DNA of 64,000 bases, from assembly GCA_039000725.1 (NCBI GenBank), contig JAWBNO010000001.1, forward strand, positions 397,152 to 461,151. The letters are read 5' to 3'. Position 1 is the stretch's first letter, and each line of letters opens with the position of its first letter. This stretch comes from Candidatus Aenigmatarchaeota archaeon. Its GTDB lineage: Archaea > Aenigmatarchaeota > Aenigmatarchaeia > CG10238-14 > SpSt-28. The notes beneath the pieces are model-generated. The model saw nothing but the letters and a program-made list of their open reading frames with translations. It searched no databases and was not told where the DNA came from. This document shows positions 34,024 through 39,054 of the stretch, piece by piece. The translations under genes and the position numbers were made by a program.

Positions 34024-34050
34024 AATCTTATTTTTTCTTAATTATTATAT

Positions 34051-34123
34051 AGCCCCGTCGTCTAGTGGTTAAGGATGCCGGGCTCTGGACCCGGAGACCC
34101 AGGTTCGAATCCTGGCGGGGCTA
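34051..34123 (+). tRNA. tRNA-Gln(CTG), no intron, CCA not encoded
   Basis: Acceptor AGCCCCG/CGGGGCT (A1-U72, typical of archaeal tRNA-Gln); anticodon arm CCGGG-CTCTGGA-CCCGG. Confidence 0.95.
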
Positions 34124-35065
34124 TTTCGGATATATTCCTTTTTTCATTATTACTCTATCTACCCTAACAGCAACCCCTTTCTTGTTTTCATACATTTTTT
34201 TGCTGTTCATTTTTGCTATTCCGATGGCAACTAACTCGTTTTTTAAACTCATTATTGCAACTAATTCCCCTTCTTTTATATCTTCCTGTATCCTAGAAAT
34301 ACCAGTAGGAAATAGTGGTGCCCCGTTACATAAACTAGGAATAGCAGAATCTTTAACGAAAACTTTTTTAACATGATCTATAGCATGCTCTATAGGTATC
34401 AAGATTTCTTTTAAAATTTTTTCATTTCCATTTTTCCAAAATTCATATGCGTCTTTTATTTTTATAAGAGAATGAGAAAGTTTTTCATCAAAATTGCCAA
34501 CTTTTATTCTTCTTAATTCAGACATATGTGCCCCTACTCCATAAGCTTTTCCTATATCATCAACTAACTTTCTTATGTAAGTTCCAGATTCTACTTTTGT
34601 ATGAAATAAAACATCCCTCCCTTCAACTTCCAATATTTTAAAGAATACGACTTCTCTAATTCTAGGTTTTCTAGAAACAGCAGACTTTTTAGGTGGAATT
34701 TGTGTTATTTTTCCCACAAATTTTTGTTCTATAATTTTTTTTAAAACATCTAAATCAAAATCTTTATGCATATGCATAACTCCGACATACTCTTTATACA
34801 ATTTTTGAAATAGTATAGCGCATTTAACACCGTCATTTAATAGAACAGGTAATAAACCAGTAACTTTCGGATCTAAAGTTCCTATGTGAGCAACTTTTCT
34901 TGCTTCAAAAATTTCTTTAATCCATAAGCTAATTTGATGGCTTGTCGGACCAGAGTGTTTATCAACTAATATTAAACAATTTTCTATTAACTCCTCAATA
35001 TTCCTTTCTTCTGGTCTTTTCCCAAAATTTTCATCTGTTTCTTCTTCATCTTTTATTAGCCACAT
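34121..35065 (-). CDS. cbf5: H/ACA RNA-guided pseudouridine synthase Cbf5
   Basis: GPTSHQ, HIGTLDPKVTG, SGTYIRKL, HMSELRR and a C-terminal PUA domain. Confidence 0.95.
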   Translation of the reverse strand: MWLIKDEEETDENFGKRPEERNIEELIENCLILVDKHSGPTSHQISLWIKEIFEARKVAHIGTLDPKVTGLLPVLLNDGVKCAILFQKLYKEYVGVMHMHKDFDLDVLKKIIEQKFVGKITQIPPKKSAVSRKPRIREVVFFKILEVEGRDVLFHTKVESGTYIRKLVDDIGKAYGVGAHMSELRRIKVGNFDEKLSHSLIKIKDAYEFWKNGNEKILKEILIPIEHAIDHVKKVFVKDSAIPSLCNGAPLFPTGISRIQEDIKEGELVAIMSLKNELVAIGIAKMNSKKMYENKKGVAVRVDRVIMKKGIYPK

Positions 35066-35080
35066 AAATAAAATTTGTTT

Positions 35081-35239
35081 TTAACTAGTTTTTATTTTGT
35101 TTTTCATTTCTTCAATTTCCTTCTTAAATCTAAGAATAGTTTTGAGTAGATTTTCTTCTTCAACCCTTAAAATTTTACAGCACTCTTTTAATATCTTTTC
35201 TTTTCTTTTCAAATTTTCCCATTCTTCTTTACTAATCAT
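35081..35239 (-). CDS. 52-aa protein paralogous to the C-terminal helical segment of the upstream AlaRS (not in ORF track)
   Basis: MISKEEWENLKRKEKILKECCKILRVEEENLLKTILRFKKEIEEMKNKIKTS; ATGA overlap with alaS stop; AAGGTG SD. Confidence 0.8.
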   Translation of the reverse strand: MISKEEWENLKRKEKILKECCKILRVEEENLLKTILRFKKEIEEMKNKIKTS

Positions 35240-37548
35240 TTATACACCTTTTTTAATTTTTTCCATTCTTTAAATAAATTATCAATAGCTTCTAAAATTT
35301 TGTTCTCATCGACATTCAAAATTTTACAACATTCTTCAAGTATTTTCTCTTTCTTCTTTAAATATTGATAGGCAACGATATCACTACAAAATTCTATTCT
35401 ATCAACTCCGTCAGAAATCCTTTTAGTTCTAATTATAGTAATATAACCAACCTCTTTAGTTGATTTAAGCATATTATGAGTTCCGCTACAAGCTTCTATA
35501 TCCTCTTCTCCAATAGAAACAATTCTGACATTTTTTTCCGGTATAGCACCACCTTGATATATTCTAAATCCATATCTTTTTTCTGCTTCAACTCTGGGCA
35601 AAATTTCAACTTTTATTGGAAGATCTTTCTCTACAATTTCATTAGCATATTTTTCTATTTTCTCTACAATTTCATCACTCAAACTTTCAAAGTGTGTAAT
35701 ATCTAGTCTTGCCTTATCTTCTCTAACTTCACTTCCATCTTGCCATACCCATTTTCCTATAACTTTTCTGGCTGCGGCGTTAATTATATGTGTAGCAACG
35801 TGATGTTTGGAAATTTTTATTCTTCTATCTTTATCAATTCTACATTTAACTAAATCACCTTCTTTTAGAGAAATTTTCTTATTTTCAAGAACATGAATTA
35901 TAGTTTTTCCAATTTTAACCACATCTAAAACTTTATATTCATCTATGTATCCGATGTCGCAATCTTGTCCACCTTGTCTTGGAAAGAAAGCAGTTTTGTC
36001 GAGAATTATCTTATTTCCATCTTCAATTTTAATTACTTTAGCCTCGAATTCAAATATATTTTCATAGTATAAAGGTACTGTTTCTATATCATATTTTTTC
36101 GCCTCACCAATTTTAATCTCCTTAGCAGAATGTTTCTTATTTAAAATTTGGTAAAATTCTTTAGTAGGTTCTTTCCCTAATTTTTCTGGAGGAATACCAT
36201 ATGTGTCATAAATTTTGACTAATTCCTCTGTACTTATTTCTCTATTTTTATAAATTTCAACAATTCTTTGATTTTTCTTTTTTGTTTCTTCATATTTTTT
36301 TCTTTCCGCATCTATTACTGTGTATATTTCATTCTCGCTTTCTTTTAGTTCTGGAAAAACGGGTTTTAAATATTCTGCATGCCAAATCGATACTTCACCT
36401 AAGTCTATATTTTTAAAGTGCTTCTCTATCAAGTCTAAACTTCTTCTCAATATAACTCTAAGAAAATATCCGGCTTTAGAATTGCTTGGCAAACCACCAT
36501 CAGAAATCGCAAAAGCCAAAGCTCTAGAATGATCTAAAACAGCATACATAGCTTGTATTTTTTCTATTTTTTCAGAAAAAACATTTTCATCAATATTCAT
36601 TTTTTCTAGAACTTCCTTTTTAGCCTTCTTAAAGTCAGATAAGTCTTCTACATTTAGTTTACCAGAAATGATTGAATATCTTTTTAAAACTTCTTTATCA
36701 ATTTTAAGCCCAGCTTTATTTAAGAATTTGTGTATCGCATCTCCAAAAACTGCATCATACGCTGTTAATGTAGCTTGAGAAAACCAAGCTAGTCTTTCTA
36801 ATCCCCAGCCAACATCTATTACTTTCATTGGCAATTCTTCTAATTTGTTTTTCCAGGTAAAATACATAAAGCCAGAATTGCTTAATTCTAAGCCATATGA
36901 AAACGTTTCTATATAGGGACCCAGAGCAGAAAAATCTGGCATAGTCCACAAGTCTTCAACATATATGAGTTTTTCTTTAGGTATTTTCATCTCTTCTGTT
37001 AAGAACCTAAAATTTAATTCAATAGTTTCGTCCTTCCAATATCCTTCCTTCGGCCAGTTAAAGGCATGCTGACCAGGCATTACAAAAGCAGTAAAATGCC
37101 TTCCCGTTATACCTACATTAAGAATATCATTAAACCTTAAACACACTTGAGGAACTATTAGAGGATTTGCTGGATATTCAAAAATCATAATTCCATTATC
37201 AAATCTTTGAAAGTTTACTATTGAAGCAATATTATAGTAAATATCTTCTCTCCATCTAGCTAAAACCGGATATCTTGGTATTGATGTGTGACCATTTTTA
37301 ACAAAGAATTCTTCCATTTTTTTCCAAACTTCTATATAACTCATTTTTTTGGCAATATTTTTTTCTATAAAACCATATTCTTCTCCACATTCAGGATCTG
37401 GACAATGCTCTCTATCTTCAATACTCCAAAAGCCCTTACCACAAATAGGACAAACTTTTCTTTTAAAACCTTCTCTTTCAAATAGTTCAACTTTCCAATA
37501 TTTTTCAGGTTCTTTTTGAAAAATTTTGAGTAAGTCTTTTTTATCCAT
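35236..37548 (-). CDS. alaS: Alanine--tRNA ligase, archaeal type, lacking the C-terminal DHHA1 (C-Ala globular) domain
   Basis: CPICGKGFWS, YPVLARWR, NVGITGRH, DVGWGLER, editing motifs HVATH and ACSGTH; only 770 aa. Confidence 0.95.
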   Translation of the reverse strand: MDKKDLLKIFQKEPEKYWKVELFEREGFKRKVCPICGKGFWSIEDREHCPDPECGEEYGFIEKNIAKKMSYIEVWKKMEEFFVKNGHTSIPRYPVLARWREDIYYNIASIVNFQRFDNGIMIFEYPANPLIVPQVCLRFNDILNVGITGRHFTAFVMPGQHAFNWPKEGYWKDETIELNFRFLTEEMKIPKEKLIYVEDLWTMPDFSALGPYIETFSYGLELSNSGFMYFTWKNKLEELPMKVIDVGWGLERLAWFSQATLTAYDAVFGDAIHKFLNKAGLKIDKEVLKRYSIISGKLNVEDLSDFKKAKKEVLEKMNIDENVFSEKIEKIQAMYAVLDHSRALAFAISDGGLPSNSKAGYFLRVILRRSLDLIEKHFKNIDLGEVSIWHAEYLKPVFPELKESENEIYTVIDAERKKYEETKKKNQRIVEIYKNREISTEELVKIYDTYGIPPEKLGKEPTKEFYQILNKKHSAKEIKIGEAKKYDIETVPLYYENIFEFEAKVIKIEDGNKIILDKTAFFPRQGGQDCDIGYIDEYKVLDVVKIGKTIIHVLENKKISLKEGDLVKCRIDKDRRIKISKHHVATHIINAAARKVIGKWVWQDGSEVREDKARLDITHFESLSDEIVEKIEKYANEIVEKDLPIKVEILPRVEAEKRYGFRIYQGGAIPEKNVRIVSIGEEDIEACSGTHNMLKSTKEVGYITIIRTKRISDGVDRIEFCSDIVAYQYLKKKEKILEECCKILNVDENKILEAIDNLFKEWKKLKKVYK

Positions 37549-37581: not shown

Positions 37582-39054
37582 TTAGTTTATTTTTTGAAAT
37601 AGAATCTCTTCTTTTTTGGGTTTTCCTTCAAAATCTTTAAATCTACAATTATTTAGACTAATTTTTTCGTTAATACCTAGTTGCTTTCTTATTTTCTCAG
37701 AGGTTTCTGGCATAAAGGGGTATATTAAAATAGATATTACTCTTAGTCCTTCTAAAAGATTATAGATTGCATTAGAAAGTTCTTTTCCTTCTAGTTTCCA
37801 AACCTCTTTCTCATTTATATATTTATTGCATTCTCTAATGAAATTCCATATTTCTTGAAGAGCCAAATCTACTCTAAAGTTTTCCATATATTTTGTAATT
37901 TTTTCTAAATTCAGCTTTTTTTCTAATTCTGGGCTACCTTCAATTTTACCTTCAAATTTTTCTGCTAAACTTAAAACCCTCCATACAAGATTTCCCAGAT
38001 CATTAACAAGTTCTCCATTTATCCTTTCTTTGAGAGCTTCTTCGTTAAAATCACCATCTTCACCAAAAGGAACTTGTCTAACTAGAAAATATCGTATTGC
38101 GTCTAAGGGATATTTTTTAGAAAGCTCTAAAGGATCAATTACATTACCCAAGCTCTTGCTCATTTTTTCTCCTTTTACGGTCCAAAAACCATGAGCAAAT
38201 ACATGTTTTGGCAACTCTATCCCAGCAGATAGAAGCATAGCAGGCCAAATAGCGCAATGAAACTTTACTATGTCTTTCCCTATTAAATGAACATCCGCTG
38301 GCCAAAATTTCTTAAACTTTTCTTCATCCCAACCAAAACCAATTCCACTAAGATAGTTTATTAAAGCATCAAACCAAACATAGAATACCTGATTTTCATC
38401 TATAGGAAATTTTATTCCCCACTTTTGGGTTTGTCTAGAAATACTTATGTCATTAAAAGCGGTTTTTATGTATCTAATAACTTCTTCCCTTCTTTTTTCA
38501 GGTAAAATAAAGTCAGGATGTTCTTCTATGTATTTAAGTAAGGATTCTTTATATTTACTTGCTCTAAAGAAATAATTTTCTTCTTCTAAAATTTTGGGTT
38601 CTACTTTGTGAATAGGACATTTACCATCAACCAAATCTGATGGTGAAAGAAAGGCTTCACACCTAACACAATAATATCCGACATATTTTCCCTTGTATAT
38701 GTCTCCCTTTTCATATACCCTTCTAAAGAATTCATAAACAGCTTTCTTATGTCGGTCTTCAGTGGTTCTTATAAAGTCATCAAAGCTTATATTTAATTTT
38801 TTAAAGGTTTCTCTCCAAGTTTCAGCCATTTTATCGACATATTCTTTAACGTCTTTTCCTTCCTTTAAAGCAGCATCTACACTTTTTTGACTATTTTCAT
38901 CAGTTCCAGTTAAGAAGAAAACCTCCTCTCCTTTAATTCTATGCCATCTAGCAAGAATATCAGCAATTAAGGTTGTATAAAAACTTCCTAAATGTGGCTT
39001 ATCATTTACATAGTATATTGGAGTAGTAACGTAGAATTTCCTTAGCTTAATCAC
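37582..39054 (-). CDS. metG: Methionine--tRNA ligase (short form, single zinc knuckle, no C-terminal domain)
   Basis: YVTTPIYYVN, HLGS, GTDE, YVWFDALINY, IGKDI and KMSKSLGN. Confidence 0.95.
   Translation of the reverse strand: MIKLRKFYVTTPIYYVNDKPHLGSFYTTLIADILARWHRIKGEEVFFLTGTDENSQKSVDAALKEGKDVKEYVDKMAETWRETFKKLNISFDDFIRTTEDRHKKAVYEFFRRVYEKGDIYKGKYVGYYCVRCEAFLSPSDLVDGKCPIHKVEPKILEEENYFFRASKYKESLLKYIEEHPDFILPEKRREEVIRYIKTAFNDISISRQTQKWGIKFPIDENQVFYVWFDALINYLSGIGFGWDEEKFKKFWPADVHLIGKDIVKFHCAIWPAMLLSAGIELPKHVFAHGFWTVKGEKMSKSLGNVIDPLELSKKYPLDAIRYFLVRQVPFGEDGDFNEEALKERINGELVNDLGNLVWRVLSLAEKFEGKIEGSPELEKKLNLEKITKYMENFRVDLALQEIWNFIRECNKYINEKEVWKLEGKELSNAIYNLLEGLRVISILIYPFMPETSEKIRKQLGINEKISLNNCRFKDFEGKPKKEEILFQKIN

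Follow-up and report, generated by a model that had tools for sequence, protein, structure and literature searches.

Results

A small gene overlaps the stop codon of alaS

The stretch of DNA analysed here, referred to as the window, comprises 64,000 nucleotides (positions 397,152 to 461,151 of contig JAWBNO010000001.1, assembly GCA_039000725.1) from the genome of an Aenigmatarchaeota archaeon (G000; 705 kb, 14 contigs, ∼90% complete). On its minus strand, alaS encodes an archaeal-type alanyl-tRNA synthetase (AlaRS) that is truncated within C-Ala, the domain at its C-terminus, and the stop codon of alaS overlaps the start codon of an open reading frame (ORF) for a 52-residue microprotein. The synthetase ends with the first helix-loop-helix (HLH) of the C-Ala helical subdomain, designated HLH1; the microprotein corresponds to a free-standing second one, HLH2, and is probably a small subunit of the enzyme. 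The features of the locus are as follows.

35236 to 37548, minus strand: alaS, archaeal-type AlaRS, ORF of 770 amino acids (aa) starting with ATG, truncated after the first HLH of C-Ala (assigned by Pfam and TIGR03683)
35239 to 35370, minus strand: HLH1, the C-terminal tail of AlaRS (residues ∼727-770), a homolog of the zipper through which A. fulgidus AlaRS dimerises
35081 to 35239, minus strand: microprotein gene, ORF of 52 aa plus stop starting with ATG, encoding HLH2
35236 to 35239, minus strand: ATGA overlap of the alaS stop codon (TGA, 35236-35238) with the microprotein start codon (ATG, 35237-35239), of the termination-reinitiation type of coupling
35245 to 35248, minus strand: Shine-Dalgarno-like GGTG within the last alaS codons, 5 nt upstream of the microprotein ATG

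An earlier note on this DNA, made from the letters alone, had described the ORF with the ATGA overlap and a Shine-Dalgarno motif of its own, and both are indeed in place. The GGTG motif probably serves as the ribosome-binding site for the microprotein start; in the corresponding junctions of relatives, GAGGT, GGAGG, or GGTG is found at equal distance from the start. No insertion or deletion was present across the stretch in contigs from runs of other studies.

The same note was right that AlaRS stops at 770 residues without DHHA1. Pfam detected tRNA-synt_2c (79-575) and tRNA_SAD (674-719) and no DHHA1 domain in it, and the archaeal AlaRS model TIGR03683 (902 positions) was matched with an E value of 1.1e-227, but only to position ∼816, and this when stop codons were read through. 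Elsewhere in the genome, DHHA1 was matched three times; the ORFs concerned (448, 385, and 301 aa) are distinct from alaS and free of HLH matches. Besides the AlaRS tail and the microprotein, no HLH match was found in this genome. Its three tRNA-Ala genes (CGC, UGC, and GGC) form canonical cloverleaves in which the D and T arms are normal and G3:U70 is present. As these are ordinary tRNAs, the enzyme therefore works on an L-shaped substrate without the elbow-binding subdomain. On this genome, a plain ARAGORN run, whose reach does not extend to introns, split genes, or missing contigs, listed only 26 tRNA genes, and those for Met, Ile, Glu, Cys, Trp, and Tyr are not among them.

The microprotein is a diverged paralog of the AlaRS tail

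Residues 7-46 of the microprotein align by BLASTP with residues 727-766 of AlaRS (20 of 40 identical, 30 of 40 positive; E 5e-9). The best ungapped 40-mer identity, 20, compares with a maximum of 14 and a mean of 10.9 in 200 composition-preserving shuffles of the microprotein. It is thus a clear paralog of the terminal helical segment of AlaRS, as had been claimed. Over the same 40 codons, the DNA is identical at 74 of 120 positions, third positions agree in only 16 of 40 codons, and 12 of the 20 residues shared by both proteins are specified by different codons, which is why the repeat must be old and cannot be an assembly artefact. The claim that selection, and not an assembly repeat, accounts for the similarity also held when the substitution rates (dN/dS 0.06-0.31; see below) and the contigs of the other studies, free of insertions and deletions, were considered. 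On this evidence the microprotein is an old duplicate rather than a recent local copy.

When the microprotein profile was compared with the PDB, it matched the dimerisation domain of A. fulgidus AlaRS (2zvf_A, residues 9-49, E 9.6e-10; 3wqy_A, residues 745-784, E 2.6e-8). TIGR03683 was matched by all 28 members of the family alignment (best E 7.8e-6), the member from the window aligning with model positions 740-782 of 902. Pfam returned only sub-threshold coiled-coil families for these 28 proteins; hence, no curated family exists. The residues of the microprotein predicted to lie in the interface with AlaRS (see below) are spaced i, i+3/4 along two stretches (7-24 and 28-49), which is the pattern of a pair of amphipathic helices with a short loop between them. 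Unlike the hairpin of a canonical C-Ala, which is covalently part of AlaRS and followed by a globular, DHHA1-like subdomain, HLH2 is here a separate ORF with its own start.

Both hairpins carry a Cys-Cys pair at homologous core positions (AlaRS C740-C741, 35326-35331; microprotein C20-C21, 35177-35182). The pair is present in both only in G000 and the related genomes G003 and G008; in G007 it is confined to the tail, and other relatives have Ala, Ser, or Val. Microprotein residues 19-20 and AlaRS residues 739-740 are within the predicted interface, and co-adaptation, a disulfide, or a metal site is conceivable. Recent gene conversion as the origin of the pair was ruled out by the different codons at 12 of the 20 shared residues.

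The microprotein gene is conserved, under purifying selection, and linked to alaS

A profile search of public data yielded 509 proteins of 24-104 aa (E ≤ 1e-3). All named relatives are from Candidatus Aenigmatarchaeota. Among the best 120, the named proteins are called "hypothetical protein" by NCBI and mostly "alanyl-tRNA synthetase" or "hypothetical protein" by JGI, with two stray names. The earlier note's description of the ORF as unannotated needs correcting insofar as its close relatives are publicly annotated under these names. When the single protein was used as the query, 56 of 61 genomes from this order gave a match (E ≤ 10), and the matching frames were mostly 45-70 aa long. The family alignment (A2) comprises 28 members that are 40-92% identical to the protein from the window. 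With a broader profile (A3), small frames matching HLH2 were counted across a phylum sample of 201 genomes; 95 have such a frame, 48 belonging to the same order and 47 to other orders; nine further rows of this count are outside the list. Larger frames with weak matches to the microprotein (240-336 aa) were rejected as AlaRS fragments or an unrelated methyltransferase-like ORF.

For the pair G000-G008, within one genus, dN/dS was 0.06 (dS 0.50), and none of the 13 computable values among 28 within-genus pairs exceeded 0.31; in the other 15 pairs, synonymous sites were saturated and pN ranged between 0.09 and 0.32. Judged by these ratios, the HLH2 microprotein is under purifying selection.

Of 30 loci read, 23 have the ORF downstream of alaS, inside the 1.5-kb flank. 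At all 23, alaS ends with the HLH1 tail, which is of HLH1 type also according to the hidden Markov models (HMMs) described below. The ATGA overlap is present at 12 of the 23 junctions; the others comprise one TGATG, longer overlaps, and gaps of up to ∼550 nt, in differing frames. The arrangement of the window recurs identically in G003 and G008, two independent genomes. Both coordinates were listed for 80 genomes. In 55 of these, the ORF lies on the strand of the AlaRS match and no more than 150 nt downstream of it, and in another 13 the distance is 151-1000 nt, so that 68 of 80 have it within 1 kb on the same strand, which is the linkage expected of a split synthetase. The check suggested beforehand, that is, to look for the ORF downstream of alaS in relatives and to compute dN/dS, therefore came out in favor of a conserved gene (95 of 201 genomes, 68 of 80 within 1 kb, dN/dS 0.06-0.31).

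In the order of the window, HLH2 is present or absent together with the archaeal alaS

In the sample of 66 genomes from the order of the window, archaeal AlaRS is strongly matched in each of the 48 that carry the ORF (E ≤ 4.5e-77, mostly ≤1e-220), whereas the 18 without it have, without exception, only a weak match (E 1e-24 to 1e-55). Four of the ORF-less genomes were tested, and all four encode a bacterial-type AlaRS of ∼595-606 aa (G031:C1:122729-124474; G045:C9:26089-27843; G019:C5:45573-47315; G053:C2:15211-16950) that covers only positions 2-432 and 551-692 of TIGR00344 and has neither the barrel domain nor C-Ala. Both states of AlaRS occur within one genus (g15). This enzyme is the small-AlaRS that a preprint describes for DPANN archaea (bioRxiv 10.1101/2023.05.29.542759). 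Within its own order, the microprotein is thus co-inherited with archaeal AlaRS as the part of a split synthetase would be. This joint pattern indicates that the two genes form a unit, and does not amount to proof of dependence; its weight is lessened because a single replacement event could remove both adjacent genes, and because relatives are not independent of each other.

The microprotein predates the truncation of AlaRS

AlaRS was matched in 200 of the 201 genomes. In the order of the window, 40 of 44 listed AlaRS frames have at most 830 aa, their matches ending at ∼785-805 of 902. Among the four exceptions, only G024 is truly full-length; the matches of G175 and G185 also end at 785 and 793, respectively, and G012 contains internal stops. 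The median AlaRS frame of other orders is 932 aa (n = 106). Two short frames among them are cut by a contig end (G218) and by a masked stretch (G142). The latter had been a candidate for a truncated AlaRS of 785 aa without the ORF and was rejected, as it is really a full-length gene with a DHHA1-like end and a masked run of N inside (L143, G142:C5:38800-41800).

Many of the other orders have a small HLH ORF directly after a full-length alaS. DHHA1 scored above the Pfam cut-off in AlaRS of four genomes with the downstream ORF (G112, G203, G024, and G132) and of one without a separate ORF (G089). As the ORF accompanies both the truncated (∼780 aa) and the full-length AlaRS, the microprotein predates the truncation. 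The earlier notion that it is tied to the loss of DHHA1 was therefore abandoned, for other orders of the Aenigmatarchaeota have it downstream of a full-length alaS with DHHA1.

In other DPANN lineages, HLH2 is the C-terminus of AlaRS itself

With an AlaRS alignment, 80 alaS loci with 3-kb flanks were pulled from named archaeal genomes and the flanks scanned by HMM. Forty of these loci have an HLH of the microprotein type close to the end of the AlaRS frame, with 0-9 residues after it (frames of 720-919 aa, three of them cut or short). By record title, these are 22 Woesearchaeota, six Nanoarchaeota or Nanoarchaeia, one Undinarchaeales, and 11 bins titled otherwise. The fused enzymes share the order editing domain, HLH1, a linker of ∼20 residues, HLH2 (the last ∼45 residues), and stop; no separate small ORF was found at any of the 40 loci, and Pfam did not find DHHA1 in L083, the one fused enzyme checked. 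What are two pieces in the window are thus one polypeptide in other lineages, again as expected of a split synthetase. A separate small ORF was present at eight of the 80 loci, namely seven of the 10 titled Aenigmatarchaeota and one "uncultured archaeon." At the loci titled Thermococci, Methanofastidiosum, Micrarchaeota, Bilamarchaeaceae, Baldrarchaeum, and Odinarchaeota, as well as at those Nitrososphaerales loci in which the hairpin was detected, AlaRS continues for 95-138 residues after a single HLH, and a small ORF is missing.

The hairpins were typed with two HMMs, one of the microprotein and one of the AlaRS tail, both built only from the order of the window. Of the fused loci, 37 were used, with segments chosen by position (L079, L093, and L141, with cut or short frames, were omitted). 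All 37 C-terminal segments scored higher with the microprotein HMM (median 27.5 vs 8.3 bits), while none of the 37 inner segments did (median 5.2 bits vs 43.1 with the tail HMM). Canonical hairpins were of the tail type in four of five cases. All 17 microproteins from other orders were of the microprotein type, a score that is partly circular as they had been found with that HMM. When 149 HLH segments (50 columns) were placed in a quick maximum-likelihood tree, all 82 HLH2-type rows fell on one side of a branch with SH-aLRT 100. The tree supports two paralogous types, HLH1 and HLH2, rather than any finer order. That the microprotein had been copied from the tail of its own AlaRS, as first thought, is contradicted by these results: it is an ancient paralogue, closer to the C-termini of Woesearchaeota than to its own tail.

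In a record titled Promethearchaeota, a 995-aa AlaRS (L142:2083-5070) has two weak HLH matches in tandem (771-810 and 830-867) with 128 residues after them; a doubled hairpin may thus occur together with the globular subdomain outside DPANN.

Structure models place the microprotein on the AlaRS tail

AlaRS residues 570-770 were modeled in complex with the microprotein, using own alignments. The ipSAE of the complex was 0.83 (0.83, 0.82, and 0.84 in three runs), compared with 0.01 for the best of three controls; the mark applied is reached by 58 of 80 solved complexes and by 2 of 110 mismatched pairs, rates that are roughly valid here, where own alignments were used. Contacts agreed by at least 98% between runs, and the pLDDT of the partner was 89. 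The modeled interface is formed by AlaRS residues 723-769, together with a few residues of the editing domain, and by both helices of the microprotein. The most confident contacts join homologous positions (AlaRS 730, 734, and 737 with microprotein 10, 13, and 17, respectively), which in the model is the geometry of a two-fold zipper.

The C-terminus of a fused enzyme from Woesearchaeota was modeled as well, both as a 160-aa segment (pLDDT 83.7, pTM 0.69) and as the 105-aa segment comprising HLH1, linker, and HLH2 (pLDDT 91.2, pTM 0.78; linker pLDDT ∼89-92). In the latter, helices span residues 2-22, 27-49, 56-59, 71-78, and 83-104, the last two being HLH2. HLH1 of the model superposes on residues 737-787 of 2zvf_A with 1.5 Å over 51 residues. 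A fold search with the 105-aa model gave no match with Z ≥ 5 and, besides 2zvf, generic helical bundles only. Helix B and HLH2 of the model were weakly matched by fragments of human C-Ala (Z 3.7-3.8); an equivalence with the longer eukaryotic helical subdomain was rejected, these values being too low.

Discussion

A probable small subunit acting in trans

For the 52-residue ORF, homology to the AlaRS hairpin, conservation, purifying selection, gene linkage, a fused form, and absence together with the archaeal alaS were observed. We consider it fairly probable that it is a real gene for a small AlaRS subunit, with HLH2 zipping in trans onto HLH1. A subunit pairing with the terminal helices of AlaRS had been one of the two ideas of the earlier note, the other being a dimerisation antagonist; four computational lines, namely adjacency and coupling, the fusion, the joint absence in 18 of 18 genomes, and the complex model (ipSAE 0.83), speak for such a predicted pairing. 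Physical binding of HLH2 to HLH1 would follow from the modeled complex.

HLH2 would accordingly be an ancient paralogue of HLH1, the element that begins C-Ala and zips two subunits together in canonical archaeal AlaRS. In Aenigmatarchaeota, it would be produced in tandem with the synthetase from a separate gene that is usually coupled to the alaS stop codon, and would pack on HLH1 as a pseudo-symmetric four-helix zipper with the geometry of the homodimeric one. The hydrophobic face of the AlaRS tail would thereby be covered either in cis, as in Woesearchaeota, or in trans, as in the source genome, and the outcome might be a capped αβ monomer, an α2β2 complex or larger bundle, or a regulated equilibrium. 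A parsimonious history, drawn up independently of any rooted tree, would start from a full-length alaS with a separate HLH2 gene downstream. Deletion of the globular part with the stop kept would have led to the form of the source genome, and deletion of both the globular part and the stop would have fused HLH2 to HLH1, resulting in the Woesearchaeota form. More tentatively, HLH2 might stand in for the zipper of a partner, in cis in Woesearchaeota and Nanoarchaeota and in trans in Aenigmatarchaeota, and convert an AlaRS that is homodimeric in other prokaryotes into a capped αβ monomer that charges L-shaped tRNA-Ala without the globular subdomain, and might act as a stoichiometric antagonist in lineages with full-length AlaRS; we regard this specific version as possible, and somewhat doubtful.

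Several observations weigh against a subunit dedicated to AlaRS. The ORF also occurs alongside full-length AlaRS that bears DHHA1, and no small frame was matched in 106 of the 201 genomes of the phylum though nearly all have AlaRS. With about half of the sample lacking the ORF, HLH2 is not generally required by archaeal AlaRS. The ORF is unlinked from alaS in some genomes, being on the opposite strand in five of 80, on another contig in five, and more than 1 kb downstream in two. In two genera (g8 and g20) of family f5, HLH2 is unlinked from alaS with its sequence kept (L015:1495-2121, G040; L032:1495-2118, G038). HLH2 is also joined to other proteins (P0121, P0122, and P0123): two protein clusters and L031 (G011:C12) have it fused to the N-terminus of a uracil-DNA glycosylase (UDG; PF03167; 233-238 aa), and one cluster, a single protein of 152 aa, has it fused to a nucleotidyltransferase (PF01909/PF18765). 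Such fusions would fit a generic pairing module equally well. As for the models, the ipSAE of the complex may reflect likeness to the solved homodimeric zipper (2zvf, 3wqy) instead of the affinity of this pair, and binding of the microprotein to AlaRS is a prediction of that model. Finally, the packing of HLH1 against HLH2 in cis, which the high confidence of the linker in the Woesearchaeota model suggests, is judged from confidence values and not from a contact map.

Part of this evidence would be accounted for if the microprotein were a dimerisation antagonist or regulator that binds HLH1 without being obligate, its level determining, as with microProtein inhibitors that stem from their target's dimerisation domain, how much AlaRS is homodimer and how much is capped monomer. 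The microprotein derives from a dimerisation element and, in the model, uses homologous positions to occupy the same face; it is also found beside full-length AlaRS with DHHA1, which should be capable of homodimerisation, and about half of the phylum sample does without it. However, the ATGA overlap and the very short gaps suggest roughly stoichiometric co-production, not separate control; the covalent fusion in Woesearchaeota leaves no room for dosage control there; and in the order of the window, all 48 genomes with the truncated archaeal AlaRS have the microprotein. We therefore think a primarily regulatory role unlikely.

A role altogether independent of AlaRS, with HLH2 forming homodimers or binding some other partner and being located near alaS only because it was duplicated there, appears just as improbable. 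This explanation would suit the unlinked copies of family f5, whose sequence is kept: in both genera, the microprotein follows, at a distance of ∼30 nt, a 145-aa gene with an N-terminal Cys-rich zinc ribbon and HTH_3 that we take to be MBF1-like, and this gene is divergent from a class I synthetase gene, putatively ileS. It would likewise suit the fusions to family-4-type UDG (two clusters and L031) and to nucleotidyltransferase (one cluster), and the situation in G013 (L014:1501-2209, G013:C2), in which a separate microprotein overlaps the start of UDG by ∼35 nt. Yet, fusion with AlaRS (40 of 80 alaS loci) is far commoner than the three other fusion clusters, the complex model places the microprotein on HLH1 with controls at 0.01, and HLH2 was not found in any of the 18 genomes in which the archaeal alaS has been replaced, a coincidence that one deletion of adjacent genes could explain.

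That there is no separate protein at all, the ORF being a decaying remnant of a tandem duplication, joined to AlaRS by programmed frameshifting or read-through, or split from a fused gene by an assembly error, would agree with the fused form in other phyla and with the −1 frame of the ATGA junction beside an A-rich run, but is very improbable in view of purifying selection and phylum-wide conservation, which argue against decay, of junctions that vary in frame, overlap, gap, strand, and contig, so that no single recoding signal could be general, of the Shine-Dalgarno-like motifs before the starts, and of the identical arrangement in G003 and G008 together with contigs of other studies showing no insertion or deletion.

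Comparison with known systems

With a small AlaRS subunit as the preferred reading, the closest structural counterpart is the helical subdomain of A. fulgidus C-Ala (PDB 2zvf, 3wqy/3wqz), to residues 745-784 of which the whole microprotein is homologous. Here, in contrast, the hairpin is a free 52-aa protein of a second, paralogous type (HLH2), and the globular, tRNA-elbow-binding subdomain is missing from AlaRS of the source genome. According to two papers (PMC8583063, PMC8887476), the HLH zipper mediates dimerisation of A. fulgidus AlaRS, one prototype architecture of AlaRS is used throughout biology, and archaeal and bacterial forms need dimerisation and elbow binding by C-Ala for charging. 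The C-terminus of AlaRS from Woesearchaeota, Nanoarchaeota, and Undinarchaeales resembles the microprotein in being of the HLH2 type, both by HMM (37 of 37) and in the tree, and DHHA1 is absent there too (one example, L083); the difference is that HLH2 is attached in those lineages and a separate gene here.

Another two-gene AlaRS in a DPANN archaeon is that of Nanoarchaeum equitans, the pieces of which are presumably large and at unlinked loci, whereas here a terminal hairpin of ∼50 residues alone is split off and the genes are coupled. Its two genes encode the respective subunits, AlaRS-α and AlaRS-β (PMC11392972). Reduced forms of C-Ala are known from the mitochondrial AlaRS of Caenorhabditis elegans, small-AlaRS, and viral mini-AlaRS, all of which resemble the enzyme of the source genome in having lost the globular subdomain, and the first also in keeping a short helical remainder. 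Mitochondrial tRNA of C. elegans lacks a normal elbow, whereas tRNA-Ala of the source genome is canonical with G3:U70. The residual C-Ala of the C. elegans enzyme measures ∼54 aa (PMC8887476), and the viral mini-AlaRS is described as another reduced form; for none of these is a separately encoded hairpin reported. Neither a tandem-HLH AlaRS nor a separately encoded hairpin was described in the papers found by full-text search, which covered articles and not their supplements, where alignments showing such an architecture might be present; a search linking AlaRS with Aenigmatarchaeota or Woesearchaeota yielded only a DPANN review and the small-AlaRS preprint.

Two further systems may be regarded as analogues. 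MicroProteins such as Id proteins and LITTLE ZIPPER titrate their target through its own dimerisation domain; the likeness would lie in a small protein that consists of the pairing element of its target alone, without homology. The cis form might find a topological analogue in single-chain ROP, in which a homodimeric four-helix bundle was turned into one chain (1yo7_A came up at a non-significant rank).

Taken together, large DPANN lineages have a different solution for AlaRS: they have lost the globular subdomain and possess a second zipper hairpin, which is part of AlaRS itself in Woesearchaeota, Nanoarchaeota, and Undinarchaeales and a separately encoded microprotein of 35-60 residues in Aenigmatarchaeota. 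The three states, that is, full-length AlaRS with HLH2, truncated AlaRS with HLH2 in trans, and truncated AlaRS with HLH2 in cis, provide a natural system for asking what purpose the AlaRS zipper and dimer serve. The family would be a conserved and functionally assignable addition to the poorly charted archaeal microproteins, and ORFs mostly annotated as "hypothetical protein" could become an AlaRS-associated subunit.

Gene neighborhood

The genes on both sides of alaS and the microprotein gene provide context only.

37582 to 39054, minus strand: metS, methionyl-tRNA synthetase, the gene before alaS (Pfam tRNA-synt_1g, and Anticodon_1 on the C-terminal part)
34121 to 35065, minus strand: Cbf5/TruB-type pseudouridine synthase, 15 nt past the microprotein stop (Pfam DKCLD, TruB_N, TruB_C_2, and PUA)
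34050 to 34124, plus strand: tRNA-Gln(CTG), opposite to and overlapping the last 4 nt of the cbf5 ORF

Between 34050 and 39054 of the window, metS, alaS, the microprotein gene, and the cbf5/truB-type gene thus form a same-strand row of translation genes.

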